Positions 10,702-29,199 are shown, counted from the first letter of the stretch. The stretch: 29,815 nucleotides of DNA from Deltaproteobacteria bacterium (GCA_016927815.1 JAFGLY010000169.1:1-29815), one strand, 5' to 3'. The notes: generated from the sequence alone by a model not told the origin. Numbers and translations are program-made.

Positions 10702-12965
10702 GGGATCCACCCCACCTGGAGGGCCTGAACCCGGAGCAGCGGGAGGCGGTGCTCCATACCGAGGGTCCGCTCCTCATCCTGGCGGGTGCGGGGTCGGGCA
10801 AGACCCGCGTGCTGACCCGCCGGGTGGCGCACCTGGTCCACCTCGGGGTGCCCCCGGAGTCCATCCTGGCCGTGACCTTCACGAACAAGGCGGCCGACGA
10901 GATGCGGCGCCGGGTCCAGGCGTTGGTGGGGGAATCCGCGCGGTGGATCCACGTCTCGACGTTCCACTCGGCCTGTGCGCGGTTCCTGCGTCGGGACGCC
11001 GAGATCCTGGGCTACCGGCCCCACTTCGCCATCTACGACGACGAGGACACGCTCCGCCTCCTCACGCAGATCGTGAAGGAGCTGGGCATCGACCCGAAAC
11101 GCCACCCGCCCCGGGGGTTCAGGGCGCTCGTGGACCAGGCCAAGAACCACATGCAGGGGCCCGAGGAGGCCACCCGGCCCGGAGGCGTGGCTCACGACCG
11201 CAGTCCGGGCATGCGGTTCGCCGAGGTCTTCCGTCGCTACGAAGCCATGCTCAGGATCTCCAACGCCCTGGACTTCAACGACCTCGTGAACCGGATGGTC
11301 GAGCTGCTGGAGATGCACGACGCGATCCGCGAGGCCTACCAGAGGCGCTTCCGGTACCTGCTCGTGGACGAGTACCAGGACACCAACCACGCCCAGTACC
11401 GCCTGGTGAAGGCCCTGGCCGAGGGTACACGCAACGTGGCCGTGGTGGGCGACGACGACCAGTCCATCTACTCGTTCCGCGGGGCGGACGTCCGAAACAT
11501 CCTGGACTTCGAGAAGGACTTTCCCGATGCCCGGGTGGTACGCCTCGAGCAGAACTACCGCTCCACCGGCCACATCCTCCGGGCAGCCAGCGCGCTCGTG
11601 CACCACAACCGCGACCGGAAGGAGAAGACGCTCTGGACCGACGCGCCGGATGGCTACCGAGTGGTCCTGCGCGTGGCCCGGGACGAGGAGGAGGAGGCCG
11701 AGCGGGTGGTCCGGGAGATCGCGCGGCAGATGCGCGAGGGGCGCAAGGCGGAGGCATTCGCGGTGTTCTACCGGATCAACGCGGCCAGTCGCCCCGTCGA
11801 ATCGGCCCTTCGAAAGGCCGCGATCCCCTACGTTGTGGTGGGCGGCCGGAAGTTCTACGAACGCCGCGAGGTGCGCGACATGGTCGCCTTCCTGCGGCTC
11901 GTGGTCAACCCGTACGACGACATGGCCTTCTTGAGGGTGGTGAACGTCCCGGCTCGCGGCATCGGAACCGCGACCCTGACCCGCCTCCACGCGCAGGCGG
12001 ACCGGGAGGGGGGAGGCCTGCTCCACACGGCCCGGCGGTTTGCCGACACGCAGAGCCGGGCGGCCCTGGCGGTGGGGCGATTCGTCGCGATCGTGGACCG
12101 GCTCACCCAGGCCGCCCAGGACCACGATCCCGGGCAGCTCGTGCTCCAGGCGGCCGAGACGAGCGGCTACCTGGGCGCGCTCCGGGCCGAGGAAACCCCG
12201 GATGCCCAGGGCCGCATCGAGAACATCCTGAGCCTGGCCCGGGACGGCGCGGACGCGGCCGCGGAGGTCGGAGAGGAGGCCAGCCCGCTCGCGGCGCTCG
12301 AGCGCCTCCTCGAGCGTGCGACGCTCGTGGGGCAGGACTCGGAGATCCCCGACGGCGGCGCGGTGACGCTCATGACCGTGCACCTGGCCAAGGGGCTCGA
12401 GTACCCGGTCGTGTTCGTCGTGGGCCTCAACGACGGCGGCTTCCCGCACGTCCGCGCCCGCGAGACCCGGGCGGCGCTCGAGGAGGAGCGGCGGCTCGCC
12501 TACGTGGCCATCACGCGTGCGCGCGAGCGGCTCTACCTCTCCCGACCCTTGAGGCGTCGGGTACCCGGCAGCGGGATGTGGTCGGCCGTCGCGCCGTCCC
12601 CCTTCCTGTGGGAGCTCCCGCCCGAAGCGATCGAGGCCCCCGAGCGGAGCGGGTTCCTGCCCGGCGCCGGCATCCGCCCCGGGCCCGGTCGTTTCTCGGG
12701 CTTCGGGTATCCGGACCTCGGAAACGCCGATCCGCCGGCCGTGCCACGCCCGCTGCGAACGGTCCGGCGCTCGATCGAGGTGGAGGACCCCGACCTGTTC
12801 CGGCCGGGACTCCAGGTCCGCCATCGGGTGCATGGCATCGGGACGATCCTCGACCTCGAGGGCCGAGGTCCGCTCATGCGCCTCCGGGTCCGCTTCCCCC
12901 GCTCGGGGACGCGTCTCCTTCGCCTCAAGGAGGCCCATCTCGAGATCGTGGAGGAGGAGGAGTAG
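10698..12965 (+). CDS. uvrD: ATP-dependent DNA helicase UvrD/PcrA (superfamily 1)
   Basis: GTG at 10698 overlaps the glmU TGA (GTGA). LEGLNPEQREAV, Walker A AGAGSGKTRVLTRR, DEYQDTN (motif II), VVGDDDQSIYSFRGAD, VHLAKGLEYPVVFVVG, YVAITRAR, and a C-terminal Tudor-like tail. The N-terminal 437 codons of the 1192-aa ORF overlap glmU out of frame and are spurious. Confidence 0.85.
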   Translation: MRDPPHLEGLNPEQREAVLHTEGPLLILAGAGSGKTRVLTRRVAHLVHLGVPPESILAVTFTNKAADEMRRRVQALVGESARWIHVSTFHSACARFLRRDAEILGYRPHFAIYDDEDTLRLLTQIVKELGIDPKRHPPRGFRALVDQAKNHMQGPEEATRPGGVAHDRSPGMRFAEVFRRYEAMLRISNALDFNDLVNRMVELLEMHDAIREAYQRRFRYLLVDEYQDTNHAQYRLVKALAEGTRNVAVVGDDDQSIYSFRGADVRNILDFEKDFPDARVVRLEQNYRSTGHILRAASALVHHNRDRKEKTLWTDAPDGYRVVLRVARDEEEEAERVVREIARQMREGRKAEAFAVFYRINAASRPVESALRKAAIPYVVVGGRKFYERREVRDMVAFLRLVVNPYDDMAFLRVVNVPARGIGTATLTRLHAQADREGGGLLHTARRFADTQSRAALAVGRFVAIVDRLTQAAQDHDPGQLVLQAAETSGYLGALRAEETPDAQGRIENILSLARDGADAAAEVGEEASPLAALERLLERATLVGQDSEIPDGGAVTLMTVHLAKGLEYPVVFVVGLNDGGFPHVRARETRAALEEERRLAYVAITRARERLYLSRPLRRRVPGSGMWSAVAPSPFLWELPPEAIEAPERSGFLPGAGIRPGPGRFSGFGYPDLGNADPPAVPRPLRTVRRSIEVEDPDLFRPGLQVRHRVHGIGTILDLEGRGPLMRLRVRFPRSGTRLLRLKEAHLEIVEEEE

Positions 12966-12990
12966 GCCCGCCGGCCGAGGCCGCCTGACC

Positions 12991-15900
12991 TTACGGGGTC
13001 CACGTGAGGGACAGCCCCACCGATCTCCCGTCGCGGGTCTCCTCGGTGACGTTGCCGGCCACGGTCTGGCGGGAGGGCCAGTCGAGCAGGTTGGAGACCT
13101 TGAGCCGGACCTGCCAGTGGGGGCCAAAGCCCTGGGTCGCGACCATGTCCACCCGGTGCACGGGCTCCTCGTAGGCGTCGGGGATCCCCGACTTGCCGAC
13201 CTCGACGATCCGCGGTCCGAAGGCGTTGTAGAGGAGTGAGACAGAGGTCCTGACGTCGGGGTTCTCGTAGCTCAACTGGGCGTTGACCACCCAGGGGGAC
13301 TGACCCTGCAGGGGGCGTTCCTCCGACGTCTGGTTGCCCTCCGTGTCGGAGAGGTCGACCTTCGACGAGATGAGCGAGACGTTGGAGCTGGCGTACACGT
13401 CCTCGAGCAGCGGGAGGAGGGCGTCCAGGCGCTGCCGGAACTCCAGCTCCGCACCCAGGTTGGTCGCGCTCGTCGCGTTGTCGAACGTGCCCAGGCTGCC
13501 GGACACCGCGCTCACGGCGACCACCGACTCGATCGGGTGGTCGAAGTACTTGAAGAAGGCCCCGACCGAGAGGCTCTCCCCCGCACGGGGGTACCATTCC
13601 CAGCGCAGGTCGAGGTTGTCGATGGTGGCTCGCTCGAGGTCCGGGTTTCCATAGAGGGAGCGACCGGTGCGGTAGTCGTAGTAGGCCACCTCGGTCAACT
13701 CACGGAACTCGGGTCGGGACAGGGTGCGCCCGTAGCCGGCCCTGAGGAGCATCCCGTCCGGATCCGCGGCGTTGCCCAGGCCGATGGTCACGGTGGCGGC
13801 TGGCAGTACGTCCCGAGACTCGAGGGTTGCCTCCACAGGTTCCTTGCTCGTGTCGAACAGTTCGAACGTCGTCACGCCCTGTACGGAATGCTCGTACCGC
13901 AGGCCGGCCAGCGTGCGGAGGCGCGAAGTCCAGGCCGCGTCGATCATGCCGTACGCTCCCCGGAGCGACTGGCTTGCCGTGTAGTCGTCCGAGTTGGCGG
14001 TGTTCTCTTCAATCTGCAGGTAGCCCGGATCCCCCTCCTCCTCGGCCCCGATGTTGGAGGGCACGATGACCTGGTCGATGGGAGCCGTGAGGTCGATGCC
14101 CTCGGTGCCCTTGAAGCCGTAGGAGAAGCGCCGGACGGTGGAGGCCCGATCGCGGCTCGCCCTGGCGCCTCCGACCTTGATGACGGTGTCGTGGCCGACT
14201 CGCGGGAGGTGCCAGGCGAGGTCCAGCCTCAGGTCACGGGTGGTGTCGTCGAGGGTCTGGTACTGGATGTCGTTCCACCCCCCACGCTGGGAGAGCACCA
14301 GGCCTTCCTCGGTGTCCAGGTAGGTCCACTCCCGTCGGTCGGGCTCGAGCCGCGTCGCGAACGCCAGGGCGTAGCGGGCGGCGGCCTCGACACGACCGAG
14401 GTCCACGTCCAGGGCGAGCTGCTCGAAGGCGAGTTGCTGCTCCACCCAGTCGATCCGCTCGTTGTAGGTGTCGCTGCTGCCCTCCGGGTCGTCCCAGGTC
14501 CAGCGGAGCGCGGTCCCCTGGGAGGCCCGATTGATGAGCGTCGTCGAGGAGAAGCGGACCACGTCCCTCCAGTCCAGGCCGAGGGAGAGGGCCCCGCCCA
14601 CGCGGACCCGGTTCGAGGTGTCCACGAACGCCGTGCGGCGGGCGACCTGGAGTCGGTCCAGGCCCGCTGCGTACACGGTCCGGACCCCCTCCTCGACGTT
14701 CCATGCGTTCGAGTAGACCAGAGCGCCCAGAGCCCCCAGTTCGGCCTCCCCGACCTTCCACCTCCGGCCGGCGCTCGCGGTCAGGCCGAGGTCGGGAGGC
14801 AGCGTACGCGCCTCGTGGGTCCAGCGATTGGGGATCATCTCCCCGTAGCGCTCGAGTTCCTCGGGCGAGTACCCGAGGTCCGAGAAGATCCCCTTGGACT
14901 TCAACGGCTGCTCGGCGCTGGCCTCGGCGACCTCTGCTGGGAGGGCCCGCCAGCCGGCCCCTACCCCCAGCCAGTCGGTGGGACCGGACGGCGCGACCCG
15001 TGCGTCGGAAAGGGTGGCCCCCCCCACCCACGTCCCCGACACACCGAGGCTCAGGACCGGCGTCTCCGGGATGCTCCGCGTGCGGATCTCCACCACCCCG
15101 CCTCCGAACTCACCCGGCCGGTCCGGAGAGAACGTCTTCTGGACGACGATGGCCTCGATGAGGGCGGTTGGGAAGAGGTCGAGGGGCACGACCCTCTTCT
15201 CCGGTTCCGGGCTCGGCAAGGCCGAGTCGTTGAGCAGGGTGGAGGAGTAGCGATCGCCCAGCCCGCGTACATAGACGTACCTGCCGCCGATCACGGTCAG
15301 GCCCGTGACCCGCTTCAGCGCAGCGGCGGCGTCGCTGTCGCCGGCCCGGGTCATCTGCTCGGCCCCCAGCACGTCGGATACCGCAGCCGCCTCTTTGCGC
15401 TCATCGAGGAGCGAGGCGGTACCGCCCGTGATCCGAGGCGCCGTGATCGTCAGGTCCGAGAGGACCAGCCCGATCTTCTCCAGGGAGAAGGAGAGGGAGC
15501 GCGCCTCGCCGGGAACCACCCGGACGGTCTGGGTGTGGGCCTCGTAGCCGGCGCGGATGGCGGTGACCTCCCATGTCCCTGCGGGCAGGGTGAGCGAACC
15601 GGTGCCGTCCGCAGCGGTCGTGGCGGCCGCCCCCGCGCCCCTGACGAACAGCCGTACGTCGGCGAGAGGGACTCCGGCGGACCGATCGGTGACCGTTCCG
15701 ACCACCGTTCCGGGCGGACCGGCCGGCACCACCGCCACGGCCTCCTCCACAGACGGCGCTTCCAGATGGACCTGAGGCTCCCCTGCACCCACCGTGACCA
15801 GCATCTCGGTGGTCCGGCCAGCGGCCACGGGCACCTCGGACACGGCTGCGACCGGAAGGCCTGGAGCTTCGACGTGCACCTCGACCCGGCCGGGCAGGAG

Positions 15901-17830: not shown

Positions 17831-18230
17831 CCTCGGCGTCCGTGACCACACCGATTTCCTTCGCGCCTCCCAGCCGGCACTGATCGACGACCTCGACGAG
17901 CTTTTCGGCCGTGACCCGCCGGTCGCTGACCACGAGCACCGTCTTGTCGCCGCTCCGGGAGAGCGCATCGCGGACCCGGCTCTGGACCATCCAGGGCCGG
18001 ACGGGCGTCTCGTCGATGTAGACCGCGGCGGACCGGTCGATGAACACCCGGAGCGCCCGGGTGTTTGCCGGCGAGGCGCTCTGGGCGCCCGGGCGCTCGA
18101 TCTGCAGTTCGGCATCCTTGGCAAAGGTCGTGGTGACCATGAAGAAGATGAGCAGCACGAGGATGCAGTCGATGAGGGGCACCACGTCGATGTGTGGGTC
18201 GCTGTGGGGGGCGTGCTGTCGCCGGCTCAT
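17823..18230 (-). CDS. exbD: ExbD/TolR biopolymer transport protein
   Basis: 135 aa, MSRRQHA…IDVVPLIDCILVLLIFFMVTTTF (single TM). Periplasmic domain carries the ExbD signature (LRVFIDRSAAVYIDETPV). ATGA overlap with the upstream exbB stop. Coordinates are taken from ORF-frame arithmetic. Confidence 0.8.
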   Translation of the reverse strand: MSRRQHAPHSDPHIDVVPLIDCILVLLIFFMVTTTFAKDAELQIERPGAQSASPANTRALRVFIDRSAAVYIDETPVRPWMVQSRVRDALSRSGDKTVLVVSDRRVTAEKLVEVVDQCRLGGAKEIGVVTDAEDG

Positions 18231-18835
18231 GCGGGCACCCGCTTCAGGCTGCCCGAGTAGATGGCCTTCAACTCCTCGAGCTCCAGGCTGAGCTTCTGCT
18301 CGAAATGGTGGAGGACGCCGCCCATCAGCAGACCCGGCACGGCGATCGCGAGGCCCATCTGGGTTGCGTACAGGGCCTCGACGATGCCTCCGGCGATGCC
18401 CTCCGAGGCGGTGGAGGTCATGGACTGTCCCAACGAGCCGAAGGTCTCGATGAGCCCGGTCACCGTGCCGAGCAGGCCGAGCAAAGGCGACATGGCCACC
18501 AGGCATTTCACGAGCATCGTCCCGCGCTGGAGGCTCTCCTCGAGGTCGGCGAAGGCCTCGTCCAGGAAGGGACGGGGAACCGGGCCGCCGAATCGCCGCC
18601 AGAGGGCTGCGCCCCGGCTTGCCGCCTCTCCGATGACGCCCTGGGCACGCCCCTCCGGCCTGACCCGCCATGCAGCCACCAGGGTCCTCAGGTCGCGCCG
18701 ATCCCCCCGCCGGAGCACGAGCAAGCGCTCCCCGAGGGCGAACCAGAGCACGAAGGCGGTGGTGAAGAGGGCGGGCATGACGACGCCTCCCCCCTGCCAG
18801 AGGTCGTAGACCTGGAGCAGGAGGGAATCACTCAT
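18227..18835 (-). CDS. exbB: MotA/TolQ/ExbB proton-channel protein
   Basis: 202 aa, three TM segments with the MotA_ExbB motif (MSPLLGLLGTVTGLIETFGSL…GIAGGIVEALYATQMGLAIAVPG). The start ATGAGTGA overlaps the stop of the upstream long ExbB-like gene. Confidence 0.8.
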   Translation of the reverse strand: MSDSLLLQVYDLWQGGGVVMPALFTTAFVLWFALGERLLVLRRGDRRDLRTLVAAWRVRPEGRAQGVIGEAASRGAALWRRFGGPVPRPFLDEAFADLEESLQRGTMLVKCLVAMSPLLGLLGTVTGLIETFGSLGQSMTSTASEGIAGGIVEALYATQMGLAIAVPGLLMGGVLHHFEQKLSLELEELKAIYSGSLKRVPA

Positions 18836-20174
18836 TCGCCACCAGGAGCCGTTCGACGGGGTCCTCGTACGCGCATTCCTGTTCGGACCGCTGGAGGTCG
18901 AATGCGTTGACCAGGGCCAACGCCCCGCGTTCGACGGTGTTCTTCACGGAACTGCCGACGCTGGCCAGGAGGTTCCCGACGAGCAGGGTGGGGATGGCCA
19001 CCGCAAGACCCATGGCCGTGCAGACCAACGCCTCTGCGATGCCGGCCGACATCAGCTTCGGATTTCCGGTTCCGTGCTCGGTGATGACGTTGAAGGTCGC
19101 GATCATGCCGGTGACGGTACCGAGCAGCCCCAGCAGGGGAGCGCCGGCCGTGATGACCACCAGGGCCGAGGCGAAGCGGTCGATAAGCGGCGTCTCGCGG
19201 AGGATGGCCTCGTCCACCACGCGATCCAGCTCCTCTCGGGAACGGTGTGCGTTCTCGAAGACCGCCTTCAGCACCCGAGGGATCGATCCGCCCCGCTTCC
19301 GGAGAAGGCTCAGGGCCTCCTCGAGCCGGTCGGCCCGAACCCGTTCGGTGACGGCGTTCACGAGCGGCATGCCGCCGCGCCTCGCGAGCGCGAGCGTGCC
19401 GGCCCGCGAGAGCGCGAGAAGGGCGCTCAAGCAGCCGAGCCCGAACAGCACGTACCCCATGGCGCCCGCATCCTCGAGCACCGAGCCGAGCCCCGTCTCC
19501 TTCTCCTTTTCGATGGTCAGGCGGTCCGGCTCGAAGAGGTGGACCTCCAGATCCGCGGGTCGCTCCCCGGCGGCGAGCGCCGCGGCCGTCGCCTGGCCGA
19601 ACCTCCTTCGGAGCTGGAGCTTTCCCTCGGCCACCGGGGCCAGCGCACCCGATCCCTCATCGGATACGCCCCAGGCGGCGACCCGGCCCCAACGGAAGAT
19701 CCGTCCCTGGACCTGCTGGCCCTCGGGAAGGAAGAAGGCCCCCTCCTCCGAGCGGATCGCGCCCGTCTCGGCCAGGCGCTCGGCCGAGGCGCGGAAGATG
19801 AGCGGGATGGCCGTGGTGGGGTCGTCGAGCGGGTCGAGGTCGAGCGTGTCTTCCGCCTGCTGGAGGGTGGACGAGAGCACGGAGTTGGCGTCGTCCATCT
19901 CCCCGAGTTCGCGATCCACGATGTCGCGCTCGTCCTCGGCGAGGTCGGCCTCGTGGGCCGTGGAGACGAGCTTCGCCTGGACGGTTTCCAGACGAGCGTT
20001 CGCCTGGGCCACGCGCTGGGCGGCCTCCCCGCTCATCTCCTGGAGCCGCTCCTCGAGCTCCCGCTTCTCCGCGCTCAGGTAGGCGAACTCCTTCTGATAG
20101 GCGGCGTCCAGGCTGGACGCCATGGCCCCTGGGTCGGTGGCCAGGGCTGCGCCGAGGAGACAAAACAGGATCAT
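18828..20174 (-). CDS. Long MotA/TolQ/ExbB-family protein with about 230-aa N-terminal periplasmic coiled-coil extension (TtpC-like)
   Basis: ATG at 20172-20174, signal peptide MILFCLLGAALA. The N-terminal half is a Glu/Arg/Ala-rich coiled coil. The C-terminal half holds three TMs and the MotA_ExbB channel motif (APLLGLLGTVTGMIATFNVI…GIAEALVCTAMGLAVAIPT). This architecture equals TtpC of Vibrio TonB2 systems. Confidence 0.75.
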   Translation of the reverse strand: MILFCLLGAALATDPGAMASSLDAAYQKEFAYLSAEKRELEERLQEMSGEAAQRVAQANARLETVQAKLVSTAHEADLAEDERDIVDRELGEMDDANSVLSSTLQQAEDTLDLDPLDDPTTAIPLIFRASAERLAETGAIRSEEGAFFLPEGQQVQGRIFRWGRVAAWGVSDEGSGALAPVAEGKLQLRRRFGQATAAALAAGERPADLEVHLFEPDRLTIEKEKETGLGSVLEDAGAMGYVLFGLGCLSALLALSRAGTLALARRGGMPLVNAVTERVRADRLEEALSLLRKRGGSIPRVLKAVFENAHRSREELDRVVDEAILRETPLIDRFASALVVITAGAPLLGLLGTVTGMIATFNVITEHGTGNPKLMSAGIAEALVCTAMGLAVAIPTLLVGNLLASVGSSVKNTVERGALALVNAFDLQRSEQECAYEDPVERLLVANE

Positions 20175-20926
20175 GACCCAGCTCCCGGGTCGGGGAGCGT
20201 GAAGTCCCCGCTGCGCACGCCGTGCGCGACCTTGTTGAAGAAGCTCTCGACCGCCCTCTGGTCTTCACGCAAAGTCAGCGCCTTCCACGTCCAACCCTCG
20301 GCCGAGCGCACCGCCGTCCCGTACAGGCCGCCGTCCGTCCGGAAATACAGCGCCACCATGCCGAGTCGAGCCACGTCGGCCAGCACCTCCTGCCCGTCCA
20401 GCGGCACGATCTGTCGATCCAGGCCGTTCTCGCGGGTGAGGCGGAGCTCGTCCTCGGTGAACGCCCAGAGACGTGCCGTCGCGCCCTCCGGGGAGATCAG
20501 GCCCGAGGCGAGCTGGTCCTGGATCCTGTCCAGCTCCGCCTGCCGCTCGGCCAGGTGGAAGGGCAGGCTGAAGTCCACGGCGGTCCGGATCCGCCGGATG
20601 GACTCCAGGAGGGCCGGGGTGAGCGTCTCACCGCGCGTGCTCGAGCGGGCCAGCTCCGCCCGACTGGCGTCCACCTCGCCCCGGACCTGGGAGAGCCTGA
20701 GCTCCTCACGCCGGAGCTGGACCTCCACCTCCATCACCTGCGCCTCGACGGCCTTGATCCTGGCCCTCGTGTCCTCCTTGGAGGCTGCGATCTCGCTGGA
20801 CAGCGTCTCCACCTCGCGGCGGAGGCGCGCCAGCTCGGAAGCGCGGTGACCCGCGGCCTCCTCTGCGAACGCGCCGGCTGGCAGGCAAAGCAGGAGGACC
20901 AGGACGAATCCTCTCCGGGGGCTCAT
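20171..20926 (-). CDS. DUF3450-like periplasmic coiled-coil protein (TtpB-like, TonB-system associated)
   Basis: ATG at 20924-20926, signal peptide MSPRRGFVLVLLLCLPAGAFA. A coiled-coil N-terminal half is followed by a conserved C-terminal block (LPFHLAERQAELDRIQDQL…VALYFRTDGG.YG). The 4-nt overlap with the downstream TtpC-like start and the position match DUF3450/TtpB genes of TonB2-type clusters. Confidence 0.6.
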   Translation of the reverse strand: MSPRRGFVLVLLLCLPAGAFAEEAAGHRASELARLRREVETLSSEIAASKEDTRARIKAVEAQVMEVEVQLRREELRLSQVRGEVDASRAELARSSTRGETLTPALLESIRRIRTAVDFSLPFHLAERQAELDRIQDQLASGLISPEGATARLWAFTEDELRLTRENGLDRQIVPLDGQEVLADVARLGMVALYFRTDGGLYGTAVRSAEGWTWKALTLREDQRAVESFFNKVAHGVRSGDFTLPDPGAGS

Positions 20927-20929
20927 GGA

Positions 20930-22267
20930 TCAGTCTTCGTCGTGGTGGGTCCAGCCGGCCGTCCAGTCGTTGGTCGCGTCAAACGCGCCCTTGTAGCTGA
21001 CCTGCTGGAAGAAGCTGTCCGAGGGGGCCTCGCCGCCGGTGGCGAGCACGGATCCGGACTTGAGCCGGAAGTCGGGCGCCGAGGGGTTCAGCGGGTCGAC
21101 CAGGCCCAGGTCGGGGGCGATCGAGTTGCCCTCGCCGCCCGTGAAGATGGGCTCCTCGTCCGTATCTTCGAAGGCACTGGCGCAGGCCAGCACCGAGTGG
21201 GTGATCCAGGCGTCCCCGCTCGTGAACCCGGAGAGGGTCTCGCTGTCGCGGAGGGACAGGCACGCCTTGGAGAAGTCCATCACCGCCAGGTTCTGGAGCT
21301 TCGGCTGCGTGCCCTTGCGGATGAGCATGCCGAAGTTGTCCTCCTTGAGCGCCTCGTCGCCCACGAGGGTGACGTTGACGATCGTCGGGGTGGTGAGGGG
21401 CTCGGCCGCGTAGTCGTCCGGGTTGTTGTCGCCCTCGAAGCCGTTGTTGCCCCCGCCGAGGATCTGCTGGACCACGGCGAACTGGATCTTGCCCTGGTAC
21501 CCGAGGTCCCAGTCGATCCCGTCGTCGCCGGGGGAGGTGCAGACCAGGTGCGTGGCGTTGACCGCCCCGCCCCAGAACTCGATGCAGTCGTCGAGGGTGT
21601 TGTGGACCTGGATGTAGTCGAGGGTGGTGCCGCTGCCCACGCCCTGCAGCCCGAGGCCGTTGACCTCGTTGGCCTTGCTGATCTCCGTGCCGCCGAACTC
21701 GATGACGACGTACTTCAAGGAGCCGCTGTCGTCGGCGTTGTCACTGCCGCCGTAGGTCCCGGTACCGCCCTCGCCCTCCGCCTCGCAGGGGGTGCTGCCA
21801 TCGGTGCAGGCGTTGATCTTCCCCAAACCGTTGATCACGAGGCCGCCCCAGTCTCCGCGCGCTCGCGAACCGACGGGCTGGTCGGAGGTGAAGACGATGG
21901 GCGCCGAGACGGTTCCCTCGGCGACGATGTTCGCGTGCCTGCTGATGATGAGCAGGCCGTTGGTGGCGGACTCACCGTAGATCCGGGTGCCCGGCTGGAT
22001 CCTCAGGGTCGTCTCGTTGACGTCGTCCCCGATGATCACGGCGCTGCGCAGCAGCCACGCCTTGTCGGAGGTGAGGACCATGTCCTCGGTGTAGGTGCCG
22101 GAGAGCACGCAGGCGCCACCCTCCTCGACGCAGTCCGCTACATTGCCGGTGTCGTCCAGGGTGTTGGTGTCGTCGGGAGTGTTGCTGTCGTGGGTGTCGC
22201 CCGTCTCCTCCCCGCCGTTGCACGCGACGAGGGGAACAAGGGCCAGAATTGCGATCAGATTGCGCAT
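20930..22267 (-). CDS. Lipoprotein, Asp/Asn/Gly/Thr-rich, predicted right-handed beta-helix-like fold; first gene of the TonB2-type operon
   Basis: ATG at 22265-22267 with GGAG about 6 nt upstream. Lipoprotein signal MRNLIAILALVPLVAC (lipobox LVAC). The mature protein is highly acidic and G/N/T-rich, with repeated short beta-strand motifs (GLLIISRHANIV, GGLVINGLGKI, KYVVIEFGG, GIDWDLGYQGKIQFAVV, PTIVNVTLVG) suggesting a parallel beta-helix. The stop lies 3 nt before the DUF3450 start. Confidence 0.7.
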   Translation of the reverse strand: MRNLIAILALVPLVACNGGEETGDTHDSNTPDDTNTLDDTGNVADCVEEGGACVLSGTYTEDMVLTSDKAWLLRSAVIIGDDVNETTLRIQPGTRIYGESATNGLLIISRHANIVAEGTVSAPIVFTSDQPVGSRARGDWGGLVINGLGKINACTDGSTPCEAEGEGGTGTYGGSDNADDSGSLKYVVIEFGGTEISKANEVNGLGLQGVGSGTTLDYIQVHNTLDDCIEFWGGAVNATHLVCTSPGDDGIDWDLGYQGKIQFAVVQQILGGGNNGFEGDNNPDDYAAEPLTTPTIVNVTLVGDEALKEDNFGMLIRKGTQPKLQNLAVMDFSKACLSLRDSETLSGFTSGDAWITHSVLACASAFEDTDEEPIFTGGEGNSIAPDLGLVDPLNPSAPDFRLKSGSVLATGGEAPSDSFFQQVSYKGAFDATNDWTAGWTHHDED

Positions 22268-22472
22268 GTTCGCTCCTGGTTGGAGGGGAAGGGATGGCTG
22301 TGGCCACCCGGTGTCGAGCGCCCAGGAGTCTACGGTCCCTGTTTGGCGGGACAGTGACGCCACGGCGGCGGGAGGATGGAGATTCGGGGGCATCCCAGGA
22401 CTTGCCGATTACCCCGATAGTGCCACTCACTTGGCCCGATCCTGTCTCATCCGGGGGATACCGTGGGCCCCT

Positions 22473-23177
22473 ATGGACGAAGCCATCCTCATCGTGGACG
22501 ACGAACCCGATCTGGTCGCCGCGCTGGACTATTCCCTGCGCCGCGAGGGGTTCGTCACGCGGACCGCAGCCTCCGGGCACGCGGCTTTGGAGGCCGTCGC
22601 GCTGGAGCCGCGTCCCGTCCTGGTGCTGCTCGACTGGATGCTGCCGGACCTCCCTGGGACCGAGGTGTTCCGGCGTCTCCGCAACGACCCCTCCACCGCG
22701 TCGATCCCCGTGGTGATGGTGACGGCCCGGGGGGAGGAGGTGGATCGGATCGTGGGTCTGGAGCTCGGGGCCGAAGACTACATCGTCAAGCCCTTCAGCA
22801 TCCGTGAGTTGGTGCTCCGGGTCCGCGCGGTGCTCAGACGGTCCAGGGTCGCCGGGCCCGACACGCCGTCTCCTCCGGACCGGATGGTCTCGGGCGCCCT
22901 CGTGGTGCACCGCGAGGCGCACCGGGCCTGGGTCGACGGCTCCGAGATCGACCTGACCGCCCAGGAGTTCCGCCTGCTCCTCGTGTTCCTGGACCACGCC
23001 GGACGAGCCCTGACACGCGAGCAGATCCTCGCGGACGCTTGGGAGGACGGAGTCAGCATCACCGAGCGTGCGGTGGATACCCACATCAAGCGACTGCGCC
23101 GCAAGCTCGGCACGTCGGGCGCGCGGATCGAGGCGATCCGCGGCGTCGGCTACCGTTTCTCGGCCAACGTCGAGTAG
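22473..23177 (+). CDS. OmpR/PhoB-family two-component response regulator (no cognate kinase nearby)
   Basis: ATG at 22473 (MDEAILIVDDEPDLV…). Receiver domain with phospho-acceptor context VLLDWMLPD and conserved T/K (VVMVTARG…YIVKPF). C-terminal winged-helix Trans_reg_C (LTAQEFRLLLVFLDHAGRALTREQIL…VDTHIKRLRRKL…VGYRF). Confidence 0.85.
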   Translation: MDEAILIVDDEPDLVAALDYSLRREGFVTRTAASGHAALEAVALEPRPVLVLLDWMLPDLPGTEVFRRLRNDPSTASIPVVMVTARGEEVDRIVGLELGAEDYIVKPFSIRELVLRVRAVLRRSRVAGPDTPSPPDRMVSGALVVHREAHRAWVDGSEIDLTAQEFRLLLVFLDHAGRALTREQILADAWEDGVSITERAVDTHIKRLRRKLGTSGARIEAIRGVGYRFSANVE

Positions 23178-23317
23178 GCCCGCCCCCCAGGCCGCCTCGC
23201 GGCGGGGTCCGCAAGACCTCCGGGGCCGCAGGGGTACGTGATCCCCGCGATTGCACGGAAGGACCGTCCTGGGGTACGTACGGTGTCCCGGCCATACACT
23301 CTCGAAGGCACCGCGGC

Positions 23318-24733
23318 ATGATCGTCACCTGCGAGCGATGCAACGCTCGGTACAAGCTCGACGACTCCCGGATCAAGGGCCGGGGTGCCCGGATCACCTG
23401 TCCGAGGTGCCACCACGTCTTCACGATCCTCGTCGATCCACCGGCGGAGAGGGCCGCTGAGCCCGCGCCCGATCCTGGGGTCGAGCCGGGGCCGCCCGAG
23501 GGCGGGAGCGGGCAGCACCTGCGTCCGTTGCAGGCCGCCCGGCTCGAGGTGCCCCAGGGGTCCGCCGATCGGCTCGACTTTCGGAAGGTGGGCATCGCCA
23601 CCTGGAAGGTCAAGGTCAAGAGCGGTCTCGTCTACGACTTCTCCGACATCCGGACGCTCCGGAAGTACATCCAGGATCACCGCGTCACCGAGGACGACGT
23701 CATCTCCTGGGACGGCCTCCGGTGGACGCGGATCGGCGACATCCCGAACCTGGACGCGTTCTTCCTGCAGGTCTACGAGGAGCGCGTGCCGGTCCCCGGG
23801 CCCGCTCTGGCGCAGGAGGAGGCCGAGGACGCCCCCACCATCGTCGTGGGCATGGGGACGCTCGGCTACAACCGCCCCACGGGAGTCTTCGAGCGGCCCG
23901 ACCTCGCATCCGACGCCTCGCTGGCGGAGGCGTCCGAACCGTCCTCCCCCGGCGACGCGCACATCCCCCGCTTCGTGGATCCCTTCGAGGCTCTCAAGAA
24001 GTCGCGTCTGAAAGCCAAGGGGCGAAGCAGTCCCGTGCAGGACCCCGGGACGGTACGGGGCGGCTGGCGCGTGCGCACGGCCTTCGTGGCCGGCCTGGCC
24101 GTGGTCACCCTCCTCGCGGTCGCCTGGTTCATCGGCTCCCGGCCCGCACCCGAAGCGCCCGCACGACCCGTGGCCACGACCCCCGCCCTTCCGGATGCCA
24201 GCGACTTTCGAGCGCAGATGCGGGATCGGATCGAGCAGCAACTGGAGCAGCGGGACCCGCTCCCACTCGAGCCCGAGCCCGAGGAAGCCCTCCGCCCGGT
24301 CGTACCCCCCGATGCGGCCCTCCGGCGGGGGACCTCCCCGGCCCTGACCTTGTCCCCGCCGAGCATCGCTCCTCCCTCGCCGGCCTCCGTGGCTGATCTC
24401 GCGGCCCGAGGTGACGCGTTGCGGGAGGCGGGCGACTGGGCCGCCGCGACGGACACCTACGCCCGTGCCGCGGCCCTGGATCCGGGCAATGCCGGGTACC
24501 GCTTCCGGTACGGAGAGGGGCTGGTCCACTCGGGTCGGCCGGCCGAGGCGCGGCAGGTGCTCGAGGCCGCCTCCCTGGCGGGCGTGGCGGCCGCGCACAA
24601 GCTCCTCGGCGACCTGGCCCGAGACCGGCAGGACGTCCAGGACGCCGTGACCCACTACCAGGAGTACCTGAAGAGCGAGCCTCCGGATCGGGCCGCGATC
24701 GAGCAGGTGCTTCGGGATCTTTCGGACGACTGA
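23318..24733 (+). CDS. MJ0042-type zinc-ribbon / DUF4339-like / single-TM / TPR multidomain protein
   Basis: ATG at 23318: MIVTCERCNARYKLDDSRIKGRGARITCPRCHHVF is the MJ0042-family zinc-finger signature. Next comes a DUF4339/GYF-like module (WKVKVKSGLVYDFSDIRTLRKYIQDHRVTEDDVISWDGLRWTRIGDIP), a Pro/Ala-rich linker, one TM helix (AFVAGLAVVTLLAVAWFIG), and a C-terminal TPR-like region (ALREAGDWAAATDTYARAAALDPGNAGYRFRYGEGL…). Confidence 0.7.
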   Translation: MIVTCERCNARYKLDDSRIKGRGARITCPRCHHVFTILVDPPAERAAEPAPDPGVEPGPPEGGSGQHLRPLQAARLEVPQGSADRLDFRKVGIATWKVKVKSGLVYDFSDIRTLRKYIQDHRVTEDDVISWDGLRWTRIGDIPNLDAFFLQVYEERVPVPGPALAQEEAEDAPTIVVGMGTLGYNRPTGVFERPDLASDASLAEASEPSSPGDAHIPRFVDPFEALKKSRLKAKGRSSPVQDPGTVRGGWRVRTAFVAGLAVVTLLAVAWFIGSRPAPEAPARPVATTPALPDASDFRAQMRDRIEQQLEQRDPLPLEPEPEEALRPVVPPDAALRRGTSPALTLSPPSIAPPSPASVADLAARGDALREAGDWAAATDTYARAAALDPGNAGYRFRYGEGLVHSGRPAEARQVLEAASLAGVAAAHKLLGDLARDRQDVQDAVTHYQEYLKSEPPDRAAIEQVLRDLSDD

Positions 24734-25251
24734 TGGACACCGTCTGCCCCGCGTGCCGCCGCGCCGGGCGCCCGCCCGTGCTCGAGATCCTGCTTTCTCC
24801 CGGCCGCTGCCGGAGCTGCGGCGCCCTCCTCCCCCCGGTGCCCGCCGAGGACGTGACCGAGGAGGGCACCCTGCCCCCGGTGCCCCCGTTCTCCACGGGA
24901 GGCGCCTGGATGCTGCGCTGCCAGGGACGCACCTGGCGCATCGCCAGCGACGAGGTCCTCCGGCGGTGGATCGTGGACCGGCGCGTGTCGGCCGGCGACC
25001 TGGTCTCCCTGGACGGCGTACGCTGGGAGCCGGTGGAGCGGCAGCCCGCGCTCCGGGACCTCCTCGCCGTGGTCGCGCGCCTCGGCGGATCCCACGCCAC
25101 CCGGCCGGCCGGCCTGAAAGAAGCTTCCACCCCCGAGACCGGCTGGACGACGGCCGTGGAGCCGGAGGGCGCCCAGCCGCCGCCCCGGTCCCAGATGGCC
25201 CCCCGCACAGGAGATCACCATGGCCGAGGACGAGTACTTCGCCAAGATTGA
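24733..25251 (+). CDS. Small zinc-ribbon (CxxC…CxxC) plus DUF4339-like domain protein
   Basis: ATG at 24733 overlaps the TGA of the preceding gene (TGATG). N-terminus CPACRR…CRSC (Cys4 ribbon), then WMLRCQGRTWRIASDEVLRRWIVDRRVSAGDLVSLDGVRWEPVERQPALRDLL, which matches the DUF4339 pattern. The C-terminal 40 aa are low-complexity and overlap the next gene by 32 nt; the true extent is uncertain. Confidence 0.5.
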   Translation: MDTVCPACRRAGRPPVLEILLSPGRCRSCGALLPPVPAEDVTEEGTLPPVPPFSTGGAWMLRCQGRTWRIASDEVLRRWIVDRRVSAGDLVSLDGVRWEPVERQPALRDLLAVVARLGGSHATRPAGLKEASTPETGWTTAVEPEGAQPPPRSQMAPRTGDHHGRGRVLRQD

Positions 25252-25519
25252 AGCCGAGAAGAAGGCTCGGCTCGCAGCCGACCTGAAGGCTCAGAAGGAC
25301 CGCACCGCCCTGGAGGAGCGCAAGGCACTCCACTGGCTCAGGTGCGGCAAGTGCGGCGCCGTGATGACCACCCGCATCTTCCGCGGCGTGGAGATCGAGG
25401 TCTGCCCGGAGTGCGGGGCGGTCCTGCTCGACCGGGGAGAACTGGAAGCCCTCTCCGGCAGGGACCGCAGCGGCTTCTTCGAGGCGCTCTCCGGCCTGTT
25501 CGGCCGGGAGTCTCCCTGA
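25220..25519 (+). CDS. zf-TFIIB-like zinc-ribbon domain protein (about 99 aa)
   Basis: ATG at 25220 with AGGAG 6 nt upstream. MAEDEYFAKIEAEKKARL… then CGKCGAVM…FRGVEIEVCPECGAVLLDRGELEAL, the PF13453-type (transcription-factor zinc-finger) pattern. Confidence 0.65.
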   Translation: MAEDEYFAKIEAEKKARLAADLKAQKDRTALEERKALHWLRCGKCGAVMTTRIFRGVEIEVCPECGAVLLDRGELEALSGRDRSGFFEALSGLFGRESP

Positions 25520-25629
25520 ACAGGTTCGTCCATGGGTCTGGGGGCGTTTCGGGCGCTGCGGATCCGAACCGGGAAGACCCGGAACCGTCCCCGGCTGACA
25601 GCTGACAGCCTCGACGGTCGGGCGCCGAA

Positions 25630-27447
25630 TCAGTACAGCACCTGCTCCTCGGTCATGGAGATCACCTCGTCGAAGGTGGTCTCGCCCATGGCCATCTTCC
25701 GGATGGCGCACTCCCGGAGCGTGAGCATTCCGTCGTTGAGCGCCTCCTTCTTGATCTCGGCCGCCGGTGCGCGCTCGGTGATGAGACGGGCGATCCGCGG
25801 CGTGACCGGCAGCACCTCGAACACACCCGTACGCCCGTGGTAGCCGGTGCCCCGGCACTTCGCGCAGCCCACGCCCCGCCGGACCTTGAGCTTGCGGTCT
25901 TTCGCGCCCGTGATCCGCAGGGCCAGGACCTGCTCCTCGGTGAGCACCTCGTCCACCGCGCAGTGCGGACAGATCCGGCGGACGAGGCGCTGGGCCACCA
26001 GGCCCTGGAGCACGCTCGCGACGAGGAACGGGTAGACGCCCAGGTCCAGGAGCCGAGTGACGCCGCTCGCGGCGTCGTTGGTGTGGAGCGTGGAGAGGAC
26101 GAGGTGCCCCGTGAGGGCCGACTGGACGGCGTTCTCGGCGGTCTCCGGATCGCGGATCTCGCCCACCATGATCACGTCCGGGTCCTGCCGCAGGAGGTTC
26201 TTGAGGGCGTTGGCGAAGGTGAACCCGATCCGGTGCTGGACAGCGATCTGGTTGAACGCCTCGTGGACGATCTCGATGGGGTCCTCGAGCGTGCAGATGT
26301 TGATCCGCGGGTTCTGGACGTGGTGGAGGGCCGAGTAGAGGGTGGTGGTCTTCCCGGAGCCCGTGGGGCCGGTCACCAGCACCATCCCCGATCGGGCGGC
26401 GAGCAGGCGCTCCACGACCAACAGTTCGCTCGGTAGGAATCCGAGGCCCCCCAGGTCCCGCACGTAGACCCCGGGGTCGAAGACCCGCAACACCACCTTT
26501 TCGCCGAAGGCGGTGGGCACGACGGACACGCGGAACTCCACCTCCTGTCCCTCGAAGGAGGTCTTGAACCGTCCGTCCTGCGGGAGGCGCCGTTCGGCGA
26601 TGTCGAGCCGGCCCAGCATCTTGATCCGACTCACGACCGCCGCGTGCACGGCCTTGGGCAGGCGGTGGATACGGTGGAGCACGCCGTCGATGCGCATCCG
26701 GACCCAGGCCTCCTCCCGCTTGGGCTCCACGTGGATGTCGCTGGCCCGCTGCTCCAGGGCGTAGTTGAGCAGGTACCAGACCGCCTGCACGATTGGCTGG
26801 TCGCTGGCATCGAGCTCGTGGGCGCCCTTCAGCCGGTAGAACTGCTCCAGGTTGCCCAGGTCGGGCAGGTCGGATCGGAACTCGGCCTCCGCAGCCTGCA
26901 TGGAGCGGCGGAAGCCATGAAACTCCACGAGGATCTGGAGGATCTCCGACTTGGAGGCCACCACCGGGCTCACCCGCTTGCCCTTGAACCGCTCGATGCT
27001 GTCCAGCAGTTCGCGGTCCCAGGGGTCGGCCACGGCCAGCGTCAGCCCATCGTCGGTCTCCTCGAGAGCGACCACGAGGTGCCGCTCGGCGAAGGGGCCC
27101 CCGAAGGACTCGGTCACGAGCCGGTAGTCGAGGGAAAGCGGGTCGAGGGTCACGAACGGGAGGGAGAGCGCTTCGGCCACCGCGCGGGTGATGGACTCCT
27201 CGTCGAGCAACGCCTCCGGCCGATCGGCCCGGTGGAAGCGGAACGACGCCACCAGCTCGATCTCGCTCACCGCGTAGGTGACCCGCTGCCGGCCGAGCAT
27301 CCGGCGCAGTTCGGCGCGCTTGTCGAGCAGGACGTGGCGGGCCTGGTCCCGGCCCCGGTTGCGGACGTCCTGTGCCTGGCCGGCTTGGAGCAGGCCCCGT
27401 GTCTGGAGCAGGGCGAGCAGGTCCTCGAGTCGCTTGAGGTGCGTCAC
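25630..27447 (-). CDS. GspE/PilB-family secretion ATPase (type II secretion / type IV pilus assembly ATPase superfamily) with N-terminal T2SSE_N/MshEN-like domain
   Basis: Proposed GTG at 27445-27447 overlaps the upstream membrane-protein TGA (GTGA). The N-terminal about 170 aa form a T2SSE_N-like domain. Walker A VLVTGPTGSGKTTTLYS, Asp box and His box (VLSTLHTNDAASG), Walker B DPDVIMVGEIRD, and a tetracysteine CPHC…CAKCRGTGYHGR zinc motif follow. In-frame upstream ATGs (to 27624) give Arg/Gly-rich junk that overlaps the membrane-protein gene. Confidence 0.85.
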   Translation of the reverse strand: MTHLKRLEDLLALLQTRGLLQAGQAQDVRNRGRDQARHVLLDKRAELRRMLGRQRVTYAVSEIELVASFRFHRADRPEALLDEESITRAVAEALSLPFVTLDPLSLDYRLVTESFGGPFAERHLVVALEETDDGLTLAVADPWDRELLDSIERFKGKRVSPVVASKSEILQILVEFHGFRRSMQAAEAEFRSDLPDLGNLEQFYRLKGAHELDASDQPIVQAVWYLLNYALEQRASDIHVEPKREEAWVRMRIDGVLHRIHRLPKAVHAAVVSRIKMLGRLDIAERRLPQDGRFKTSFEGQEVEFRVSVVPTAFGEKVVLRVFDPGVYVRDLGGLGFLPSELLVVERLLAARSGMVLVTGPTGSGKTTTLYSALHHVQNPRINICTLEDPIEIVHEAFNQIAVQHRIGFTFANALKNLLRQDPDVIMVGEIRDPETAENAVQSALTGHLVLSTLHTNDAASGVTRLLDLGVYPFLVASVLQGLVAQRLVRRICPHCAVDEVLTEEQVLALRITGAKDRKLKVRRGVGCAKCRGTGYHGRTGVFEVLPVTPRIARLITERAPAAEIKKEALNDGMLTLRECAIRKMAMGETTFDEVISMTEEQVLY

Positions 27448-29138
27448 GGGGGCAGGGTCTCCGGCACGGAACGTATCTCCGGCGCGGATGGGCAGAGACG
27501 GCGCACGTCCCAGGCGCCGCCCTCTGCCCCCGCCACGTGGGGCGCGCCCAGGACGGGCTCGAGCCGCGCCACCTCGGACGGCGTCCCGGCGATCACCGCC
27601 CATCCCTCCTGTCCGAGCGCACACAGGTCCGGTGGGTCCACGGCCATCCAGGCATCGCGGCTCGAAGCCACCCAGCGGCCCGTGTCGGAGCGCGCGGGCG
27701 GTGGGCCCGGCCGGTCGGGGTCGACCAGGAGCGAGCGGCCGTGCACGCGCTGGTCGAGAAGGGCCCGCTGGGGATGGATCCCCGGTCCTGCGGCGGGGAC
27801 CCAGACGAGCGGGCCCGGGGGCAGGTCACCGATGGCTGCCAGCACGTCCGGAGCCGAGGCGTCGGCCACCGGCAGCGGCCAGGGCAGCGGGGAGAGCAGC
27901 GCGTAGTCGAGGAGCACCGCGCCGGCCGCGATCGGGGCGACCGGGCGGCCGAAGCGGGTGCCGAGGCGCCGGCTGCCGCGGGCGGCCAGCATGGCCAGCG
28001 CCACCTGTCCGAGGAGCATCAGGCGGCCGTGGTGGTGGATGCGATTCCCCAAGGGCACGAGGTCCACCATCCACGCCGCGGGGTTGTCCACGCCGAGCGG
28101 GCTGCCGCCGGCCCTCAGGCGGGGGCCGGGCGCCAGGACCAGGGGAACGGCGAGCACCCACCACCACCGGCTGCGGCCCGCGGCGAGGGCCAGCGCCAGC
28201 GCCGCGATGCCCAGGTAGGCGGGGTGGAGCCGGACGACCGCCCCGGACGGAGGGGTGACGGGCCCGGGCGCCACGAACGACACCAGATCCGCACCGTCCC
28301 AGGGATTCAACGGCCAGAGCGGCTCGGGTCCCTCCACGCGCTGGCTCGTCTCTGGCCGGATCTCGCTCCAGGCCCTGGGCCCCAACAGGGCCACGGCCGG
28401 CGTGGCGAGGGCGGCTGCCAGGAGCGCGGCCGCCCCCCAGCGCCCCGCCTGCCGCGGCCGCCGCACGAGGGCGGCCAGGCCCGCCCCCAACGCGAGCAGG
28501 GACCCCATCAACGCCAGGTACGGGCCGCACCAGGCCAGGACGCCCAGACCGCCGCCCACGCCGGCCACCCACCGCCAGGACGGCAGGATGGGCGGATCCG
28601 TCTCCGCCGGCCGAGGGGGCACGGGCACCACCACCATCGCGGCCACCACGGCCAGGAGGCCGAGCGCGAGATCCTCCGTGAGCCCCGAGGCCACACTCCC
28701 GGCGAAGACCGGACCGAGCGCCAGGGTCAACCCCCCGATCCACGGGTGGCCCCCCGCCCGGCGGGCGGCCCAGGCGCCCCCGAGGAAGGCCCCGGCCACG
28801 GCGAGGACCTGGGCCAGGTTCCAGGCCGCGAGGATGCCCACCGCCCGGCTCGCCGCCCCGAACACCGCCGCGAGGAGCGGATCGATGGCGGCCCGCTCCA
28901 GGGCCACCGGAAGGAGCGCCGTGCGCGCGGGCCATTCGGGAAGCGCGAGGCCCCGCCACCACCAGGACCAGGCGTGTCCCCAGACCTCGCCGCCGCGCCA
29001 GGCGAGGATGGGCTCCCCCTCGGCAAAGGGCAGCCGGGCCGACGCGAGCCCCGCGAGCGCCAGGGCGCCGGCGAGCCAAAGGACCCACCGCTGTCCGAGC
29101 CGGGCCGACGCGCACGCCTTCGGGGAAGTCCGGGCCAT
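27444..29138 (-). CDS. Large polytopic (about 10-12 TM) Trp-rich integral membrane protein of unknown function, possibly GT-C-like
   Basis: ATG at 29136-29138 (MARTSPKACASARLGQRWVLWLAGALALAGL…). Many hydrophobic helices (AVFGAASRAVGILAAWNLAQVLAVAGAFLGG; LGLLAVVAAMVVVPV; GVLAWCGPYLALMGSLLALGAGLAALV; WWWVLAVPLVLAPG; LMLLGQVALAMLAA). Periplasmic-loop-like EGEPILAWRGGEVWGHAWSWWWRGL. Roughly 120-aa soluble C-terminal tail. The stop overlaps the GspE-like start. Confidence 0.65.
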   Translation of the reverse strand: MARTSPKACASARLGQRWVLWLAGALALAGLASARLPFAEGEPILAWRGGEVWGHAWSWWWRGLALPEWPARTALLPVALERAAIDPLLAAVFGAASRAVGILAAWNLAQVLAVAGAFLGGAWAARRAGGHPWIGGLTLALGPVFAGSVASGLTEDLALGLLAVVAAMVVVPVPPRPAETDPPILPSWRWVAGVGGGLGVLAWCGPYLALMGSLLALGAGLAALVRRPRQAGRWGAAALLAAALATPAVALLGPRAWSEIRPETSQRVEGPEPLWPLNPWDGADLVSFVAPGPVTPPSGAVVRLHPAYLGIAALALALAAGRSRWWWVLAVPLVLAPGPRLRAGGSPLGVDNPAAWMVDLVPLGNRIHHHGRLMLLGQVALAMLAARGSRRLGTRFGRPVAPIAAGAVLLDYALLSPLPWPLPVADASAPDVLAAIGDLPPGPLVWVPAAGPGIHPQRALLDQRVHGRSLLVDPDRPGPPPARSDTGRWVASSRDAWMAVDPPDLCALGQEGWAVIAGTPSEVARLEPVLGAPHVAGAEGGAWDVRRLCPSAPEIRSVPETLPP

Positions 29139-29199
29139 CCCGGGTCCGGTATCACGGGCCGGGCGAACCGGGCCGCTCCCAGCACGATAGGCGGTTTCC

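Follow-up and report, generated by a model that had tools for sequence, protein, structure and literature searches.

The DNA analysed here (hereafter, the window) is a complete contig of 29,815 nucleotides (nt) from a metagenome-assembled genome (MAG) labelled 'Deltaproteobacteria bacterium' (GCA_016927815.1, contig JAFGLY010000169.1), with a G+C content of about 72%. Between positions 22,473 and 25,519 it carries a response regulator gene followed by three genes for small or modular zinc-ribbon proteins, here named P2, P3, and P4 (Table 1). All four genes are present at these positions and look coding, with the excess of G+C at third codon positions (GC3) that is typical of real genes in this genome (response regulator: 0.89, P2: 0.88, non-overlapping part of P3: 0.93, P4: 0.89). 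The stop of P2 and the start of P3 overlap in TGATG, the P3 and P4 coding sequences share 32 nt, and P4 has an AGGAG Shine-Dalgarno sequence, all of which a preliminary description had reported and all of which can be read in the sequence. That description presented the group as an orphan regulator followed by a trio of zinc-ribbon proteins. Based on comparisons with related genomes, we instead favor a reading in which P2, P3, and P4 form an operon-like unit that is conserved in uncultured Myxococcota and does not include the response regulator, and we put this reading at a probability of about 55%.

Table 1 Features of the zinc-ribbon locus and its surroundings (aa, residue numbers in the respective protein)
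Feature	Position (nt)	Strand	Description
Direct repeat, left copy	12960..13003	+	Begins in the last UvrD codons/stop region
PhoB-family (OmpR-type) response regulator	22473..23177	+	Belongs to the putatively translocated TonB2/TonB-dependent receptor block, not to the zinc-ribbon unit
Direct repeat, right copy	23172..23212	+	Gives the last two codons and stop of the response regulator
Conserved non-coding stretch 5' of P2	23243..23292	+	About 50 nt, from an alignment of the window, L001, and L002
P2	23318..24733	+	471 aa; predicted bitopic inner-membrane protein with zinc ribbon, linker, GYF-fold domain, transmembrane helix, and periplasmic TPR domain
P2 zinc ribbon	23318..23425	+	aa 1-36; MJ0042/GltJ/ZitP type; C5, C8, C28, C31
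P2 divergent GYF-fold domain	23573..23782	+	aa 86-155; from AlphaFold2 model and Foldseek
P2 transmembrane helix	24077..24136	+	aa 254-273; hydrophobic TAFVAGLAVVTLLAVAWFIG, K/R-rich stretch before it
P2 C-terminal TPR domain	24383..24715	+	aa 356-466; TPR_2, TPR_16, TPR_14, and TPR_19 matches; predicted to be periplasmic
P3	24733..25251	+	172 aa; soluble protein with Cys4 motif and GYF domain; truncated orthologue of the second zinc ribbon-GYF-transmembrane-TPR gene
P3 Cys4 motif	24745..24819	+	C5, C8, C26, C29; CxxC-x17-CxxC; probably a degenerate MJ0042-type ribbon by descent
P3 GYF-fold domain	24904..25092	+	aa 58-120; from AlphaFold2 model, Foldseek, and similarity to the P2 segment
P4 Shine-Dalgarno sequence (AGGAG)	25209-25213	+	6 nt ahead of the ATG
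P4	25220..25519	+	99 aa; charged N-terminal segment of about 40 aa, PF13453 ribbon at aa 41-78 (nt 25340-25453)
T2SSE-family ATPase with MshEN domain	25630-27447	-	Convergent to P4
Polytopic membrane protein (about 590-599 aa)	27444-29243	-	No Pfam family; precedes the ATPase in an overlapping operon

To place the locus among its relatives, 80 loci from species-representative genomes were fetched with the P2-family alignment, and further loci were added through exact-protein look-ups. All are MAG contigs, mostly labelled Myxococcota or Deltaproteobacteria, and none derives from a cultured organism. Their open reading frames (ORFs) were scanned with a hidden Markov model (HMM) of the GYF-like domain and, using phmmer, with the P3, P4, response regulator, UvrD, T2SSE-family ATPase, and 599-aa neighbour sequences of the window. 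Across about 70 related loci, the conserved order is UvrD, P2, a second gene encoding a zinc ribbon and a GYF domain (hereafter, the second gene), and P4. Of the 68 loci with enough sequence, 60 have UvrD as the immediate upstream neighbour of the P2 homologue, and none has a response regulator there (0/68). Where at least 2.5 kb of downstream sequence was available (58 loci), P2 is followed by the second gene in 55 cases (50 long and 5 short forms), and the second gene by a P4 homologue in at least 31 of 54, the P4 counts being lower bounds from single-sequence phmmer searches (E<1e-10). Further upstream of UvrD, GlmU-like and aminotransferase genes are kept in the relatives; in the window, the UvrD gene (within the ORF 9387-12965, with a start near 10698) also lies downstream of a GlmU-like gene.

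Upstream of P2, the sequence TTGC(A/G)..GG.AGG.CCGTCCTGGGGTACGTAC (TTGCACGGAAGGACCGTCCTGGGGTACGTAC...) within positions 23243-23292 is near-invariant among the window and two related loci (L001 and L002), even though the flanking genes differ and protein identity there is just ~56%. This stretch has no Rfam match and no match to the sigma-70 consensus; it may represent a promoter of its own, or a 5' leader, for a P2-P3-P4 operon. Rfam and tRNA scans of the whole window were empty, a sigma-70 promoter scan of 22300-25700 gave no site, and a terminator scan returned a single minus-strand match inside P4, no better than shuffled sequences, and none between the response regulator and P2.

P2 has the ribbon, transmembrane, and TPR modules that had been attributed to it. 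Its ribbon exceeds the cutoffs of Zn_ribbon_4 (PF13717; 53.3 bits vs 30.3) and of the MJ0042 model TIGR02098 (33.2 vs 20.9), and the closest PDB sequence matches are the zinc ribbon of GltJ/AgmX (7zok, E 7.7e-6) and 2nb9 (E 3.5e-5, P2 aa 1-41). The latter is listed in the PDB table as 'Uncharacterized protein', and we take it to be the zinc ribbon of ZitP. More than 283 full-length homologues were found (33-57% identity). In the family alignment, the ribbon and GYF blocks are near-invariant and the transmembrane block is hydrophobic throughout all homologues, whereas the linker, which is Pro/Glu-rich and flexible, and the remainder of the protein vary. The positive-inside rule predicts an N-in topology. 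Two further cytoplasmic segments between the GYF domain and the transmembrane helix, PTMIVGMGSL (aa 173-182; 23834-23863) and RFVDPFExLK (aa 218-227; 23969-23998), are kept family-wide and could be candidate docking sites. The statement that each of the three genes starts with a Cys4 ribbon stands for P2, for which profiles support it; in P3 it is a cysteine pattern only, and in P4 the ribbon is not at the start.

The domain that follows the ribbon in P2 and P3 had been described as DUF4339-like. Compared directly, the two segments (P2 aa 96-152, P3 aa 59-114) are 30% identical across 57 residues (pairwise E 2e-7) and, together with the Cys4 motifs, uphold the proposed common architecture of the two proteins. 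When 22 homologous segments were scanned singly, GYF_2 was the commonest family match (14/22), although all matches were weak and sub-threshold (best E 1.2e-3). The AlphaFold2 model of P3 is confident at aa 58-120 (pLDDT ~94), with a beta-beta-alpha-beta-alpha layout, and its best PDB match is the GYF domain of GltJ (7z3c: probability 1.00, root-mean-square deviation (rmsd) 2.7 A over 57 columns, E 0.03), followed by the GYF domains of human GIGYF1/2 and yeast Smy2. A model of P2 aa 82-158 (pLDDT 91.8) gave nine top PDB matches that are all GYF domains, including that of GltJ (TM-score ~0.5, E 0.03-0.2). Superpositions with the best matches reach TM-scores of ~0.5-0.6 and rmsd values of 2.1-2.7 A. 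Based on these models, we accept that the P2 and P3 domains have a GYF fold, at the level of fold only. They have in common with GYF_2/DUF4339 the fold class, a similar length, and a W...G...(helix)...W core, but form a separate, rarer, and divergent subfamily that does not reach the profile, and membership in Pfam GYF_2 as the family is now modelled was rejected for this reason. A search with a profile of the GYF-like domain returned 1192 cluster representatives (E<=1e-3) among 1.84 billion. PDB sequence searches added little: the GYF-only profile found nothing meaningful, 7z3c included, and the profile of full-length P2 was swamped by TPR proteins.

The count of four such modules in the window is correct, with one each in P2 and P3 and two in an SPFH protein (5674-7209, minus strand; Band_7_1) that carries canonical C-terminal GYF_2 repeats (41.2 bits, above the cutoff). 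However, the suggestion that DUF4339 serves this lineage as a general adaptor was an over-reading. An hhalign comparison of the P2/P3 GYF family with the SPFH repeats was not significant, and the four modules are two pairs from different subfamilies, canonical in the SPFH protein and divergent in P2 and P3. Each SPFH repeat comes after a poly-proline run (PPPPPAG... and PPAPPPPPAA...) and the protein ends in a Pro-rich tail, so that ligand-like stretches lie beside the GYF modules.

P4 was described as zf-TFIIB-like, and it scores 43.4 bits against Zn_ribbon_TFIIB (PF13453; cutoff 22). Its best PDB sequence match is 8yoz ('Transcription factor zinc-finger domain-containing protein'; E 3e-7, P4 aa 40-97 vs 8yoz aa 4-64), with which it shares the CxxC...CPxCG pattern followed by (W)LD.GEL; the charged N-terminal segment of 40 aa is additional in P4. 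Literature searches for a published function of PF13453, zf-TFIIB, or 8YOZ gave nothing. Among the three zinc-ribbon genes, P4 is under the tightest constraint (dN/dS, NG86 method: P4, 0.14; P3, 0.52; P2, 0.47-0.56). This constraint, the name of PF13453 ('transcription factor zinc-finger', after TFIIB-type ribbons), and the position of UvrD directly upstream of P2 would all fit an alternative in which the ribbons are nucleic-acid-binding and not protein-binding, and P4, perhaps also P3, are small DNA- or RNA-binding regulators tied to the UvrD helicase. We regard this as doubtful. Protein binding is the role described for the nearest solved relatives of the P2 ribbon, the GltJ zinc ribbon and 2nb9 (PMC11135422). 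Both P2 and the long form of the second paralogue sit in the membrane and have a periplasmic TPR domain, and the UvrD-P2 intergenic region holds its own conserved element. Moreover, the retention of the GlmU-like and aminotransferase genes upstream suggests a core-genome neighbourhood rather than one pathway. A link between P4 and the SPFH protein, modelled on the Bacillus subtilis PspA-YdjGHI system (SPFH and zinc-ribbon membrane protein), was considered and rejected, given that YdjG has TF_Zn_Ribbon (PF08271) and not PF13453, and that the SPFH gene lies at a distance of 16 kb, without synteny.

The response regulator matches Response_reg (E 3e-26) and Trans_reg_C (E 4e-23), as expected from its earlier assignment to the OmpR type, and the residues read from its sequence (DD at aa 9-10, D53, T84, and K105) agree with a receiver and winged-helix protein of the OmpR/PhoB family. 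It resembles PhoB in its receiver and winged-helix output and in that PhoB models are its best NCBIfam matches. However, its score against PhoB TIGR02154 (225.7 bits) is under the equivalog cutoff (296.2), no PhoR gene adjoins it, and its conserved neighbour is a TonB2/TonB-dependent receptor cluster. Its homologues are widely annotated as PhoB, and one of them (59% identity) lies within a pstSCAB-phoU-phoB-phoR operon. Scans of the major ORFs of the 29.8-kb contig revealed neither a HisKA nor a HATPase_c domain, in line with the reported lack of a histidine kinase. The gene set beside the regulator encodes a beta-helix lipoprotein, DUF3450, two ExbB-like proteins, ExbD, TonB, a TPR protein, and a TonB-dependent receptor. 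An orthologue with 80% identity (P0126) occurs in the MAG GCA_041309225.1 at locus L088, divergent from a matching gene set and with no kinase beside it. The P2 locus of the same MAG (L001) is on a different contig and reads UvrD-P2-P4-ATPase, with the response regulator absent.

In the window, this block of ~10.2 kb (about 12,966-23,171) sits between UvrD and P2 and is flanked by an imperfect direct repeat of ~44 bp that begins GAGTAGGCCCGCC (local score 18 vs 9.2 +/- 1.3 for shuffled sequences). P0126 aligns to aa 1-232 of the response regulator only, and, to the right of the right junction, about 50 nt ahead of P2 are conserved with L001 and L002 despite a different upstream gene. The block looks as though it was inserted or translocated here and the target sequence duplicated in the process. 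We conclude that the response regulator is truly an orphan and part of a TonB uptake block, which we label as iron-uptake-type, and that its adjacency to P2 is a lineage-specific rearrangement; most likely it regulates the divergently transcribed TonB2/TonB-dependent receptor uptake operon. That operon is headed by a predicted 487-aa lipoprotein (20930-22393, minus strand; LVAC lipobox) that has no Pfam match in the window and whose L088 orthologue is recorded with Beta_helix_4 (PF28492).

These comparisons bear on a rival reading, in which a single functional unit comprises the regulator gene and all three zinc-ribbon genes and the regulator controls, or is co-transcribed with, the trio, the ribbon proteins being its output or sensor. 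The two parts do lie on one strand with a 140-nt gap in which no terminator-like site was found, and there are no kinase genes nearby. Even so, a functional link is improbable: the regulator precedes the P2 homologue in none of the 68 loci, the orthologues of the two are on separate contigs in GCA_041309225.1, where the regulator has the TonB2/TonB-dependent receptor cluster beside it, and the repeat-bounded block ends just before the conserved element upstream of P2.

P3 is a genuine gene, conserved in its own right. Conservation of its 172-aa ORF in relatives, the check proposed at the outset, yielded three close homologues (P0122-P0124; 152-153 aa) with 62-69% identity, higher than the identity of P2 across these genomes (about 55-57%), and two of the three are placed directly after a P2 homologue and ahead of a P4 homologue. 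The four cysteines are retained in P0122-P0124 and in L006_188. In the relatives, P3 ends ~20 codons earlier and is followed by a 24-nt gap and then P4. The extra ~20 codons in the window (25190-25251), beyond the stop of the orthologues, are window-specific and account for the 32 nt shared with P4. In the P3 frame, the GC3 signal is gone from about 25090. This loss, the window-specific tail, the lack of any Pfam or NCBIfam match to P3, and its dN/dS, which is not low, could be taken to mean that the ORF is spurious, a product of high G+C, or that the second paralogue survives here as a decaying pseudogene. Such an explanation is very unlikely, considering the high GC3 of the non-overlapping part, the homologues conserved beyond the level of P2, the confident domain model with its retained cysteines and GYF core, and a dN/dS equal to that of P2. 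In addition, short forms (150-190 aa) persist in loci where P2 is just 38-40% identical (L006, L011, L012, L014, and L016).

The preliminary description took P2 and P3 for a full-length and a truncated paralogue. Truncation of P3 is supported, but its source is a second full-length gene and not P2. In the 50 loci with a long second gene, 321-809 residues extend beyond the GYF domain and comprise a long acidic/Pro-rich region, a transmembrane helix, and a short C-terminal TPR-like domain. Short second genes, with 34-58 residues beyond the GYF domain, are restricted to the clade nearest the window (the window, L002, L006, L011, L012, L014, and L016; L002 falls outside the 58-locus count as it has too little downstream sequence). 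The P3 GYF domain resembles those of second genes (mean 35.6%, maximum 73% identity) more than P2-type domains (mean 26.3%, maximum 32.8%). Because of this similarity, and because 55 of the 58 loci carry a second gene at this position, P3 is not a copy of P2; it is a truncated orthologue of an ancient second paralogue that lost its transmembrane and periplasmic parts. That P3 is instead a recent tandem copy of the 5' portion of P2, as the preliminary description implied and as the matching architecture, adjacency, and 30% GYF identity of the two might suggest, is scarcely credible when the P3 domain is nearer to second genes of distant relatives than to any P2-type domain, the slot holds a second gene (full-length in 50 loci) almost throughout, and P2-type domains are ~63% identical to one another, so that a recent copy would be far more alike.

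No Pfam or NCBIfam zinc-ribbon model (PF13717/TIGR02098, E<=1) matches P3, which has only the pattern of four cysteines. Long second genes still match Zn_ribbon_4 (L079: 42.2 bits; L028: 23.8 bits), short ones do not, and since the long orthologues score, the Cys4 motif of P3 is probably an MJ0042-type ribbon by descent. At L001 (7428-7787), the second zinc ribbon-GYF gene has been lost, and the P4 homologue is annotated 12 codons further upstream, with a 4-nt overlap with P2. Given that long, short, and absent states of the second gene all occur, the slot between P2 and P4 is evolutionarily labile.

Beyond P4, the closest relatives (L001, L006, L011, L012, and L014) likewise have the genes for the T2SSE-family ATPase and the polytopic membrane protein as a pair convergent to P4; elsewhere, the distance of the pair is variable. 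MshEN is a c-di-GMP-binding type of domain. No other secretion or pilus genes were seen near this pair.

A possible function for the unit comes from the zinc ribbon-linker-GYF arrangement of GltJ, which a 2024 study of the Myxococcus gliding machinery demonstrated to work as a conformational switch and proposed as a general bacterial signalling device (PMC11135422). In that model, the zinc ribbon binds a linker motif in the OFF state and is displaced by MglA-GTP in the ON state; AglZ is bound at its proline-rich region by a non-canonical surface of the GYF domain, and the freed zinc ribbon then recruits MglB (PMC11135422). By analogy, P2 would be a GltJ/ZitP-like transmembrane adaptor or switch. 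Its zinc ribbon and GYF domain might bind cytoplasmic partners (a proline-rich ligand for the GYF domain, and a second partner competing with the linker for the ribbon), and this binding might be coupled to protein contacts in the periplasm through the TPR domain. P3 would then be a free cytoplasmic version of the binding module, acting as a co-adaptor or competitor, and P4 a candidate cytoplasmic partner. Extended to all relatives, the UvrD-proximal P2, second paralogue, and P4 could constitute an undescribed envelope-spanning signalling or polarity module of uncultured Myxococcota, with paired GltJ-like switches, the PF13453 protein as their dedicated ligand, and one switch freed as a soluble regulator or decoy in the clade of the window. 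We advance this last proposal as speculative and give it a low probability.

Several observations weigh against the unit and its interpretation. Gene models in the related loci are stop-to-stop ORFs combined with matches to home-made HMMs, co-transcription of P2, P3, and P4 is deduced from their overlaps, and read-through from the response regulator may occur; no terminator was found between it and P2. Pfam GYF_2/DUF4339 (PF14237; gathering cutoff 25.8 bits) does not match P2 or P3 at E<=1, nor the excised P2 segment at E<=10, which leaves the DUF4339-like label without a profile score and the GYF fold to the structural models; the Foldseek matches have weak E-values (0.03-0.2), which is normal for a domain of ~65 residues, and the match lists are consistently GYF. 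Against the GltJ equivalog NF033761, P2 scores 25.1 bits (cutoff 450) over aa 1-48 only, that is, the ribbon, and it has a TPR domain in place of TonB-C (no TonB_C in the Pfam scan); on these two grounds, P2 as an orthologue of GltJ was rejected. Outside Myxococcales, zinc ribbon-GYF proteins are not correlated with MglA, MglB, or AglZ (PMC11135422), and the adaptor or switch mechanism suggested for P2 is an argument from analogy.

The zinc ribbon-GYF module and its wide distribution are already published; we did not find the UvrD-adjacent trio or the clade-specific reduction of a paralogue described. The locus provides a concrete, conserved example of a zinc ribbon-linker-GYF protein outside the Glt system, with a defined neighbourhood consisting of a tandem pair and a PF13453 protein. 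Reduction of a membrane copy to the bare cytoplasmic module amounts to a natural experiment, which could help to find the ligands of the module. For annotators of this MAG, it is relevant that the apparent layout of a regulator followed by its targets would be an accident of block insertion.

Among known systems, ZitP, the polar zinc-finger protein of Caulobacter crescentus, resembles P2 in having an N-terminal MJ0042-type ribbon that binds protein on a membrane-anchored protein. It is not known to have a GYF domain and carries a C-terminal DUF3426 domain, and no PopZ-type partner is evident at the P2 locus. ZitP is cited for zinc-ribbon function in the GltJ study (reference 22 in PMC11135422), according to which zinc ribbon-GYF pairs are common in bacteria, especially in myxobacteria, with ligands that are probably different outside Myxococcales (PMC11135422). 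No Glt/Agl, MglA/B, or AglZ genes were found in the 29.8-kb window or in the related loci examined. Compared to GltJ (AgmX; 7zok, 7z3c), P2 has the same cytoplasmic N-terminal zinc ribbon, flexible linker, single transmembrane helix, and predicted periplasmic C-terminus, and the GYF domains of both are non-canonical, lack the G-Y-F signature, and match at the level of fold. The periplasmic end of GltJ consists of a disordered region and a TonB-C domain (PMC11135422, PMC11761067). P2, for its part, is accompanied by a tandem paralogue and a PF13453 protein, neither of which is part of the described Glt system.

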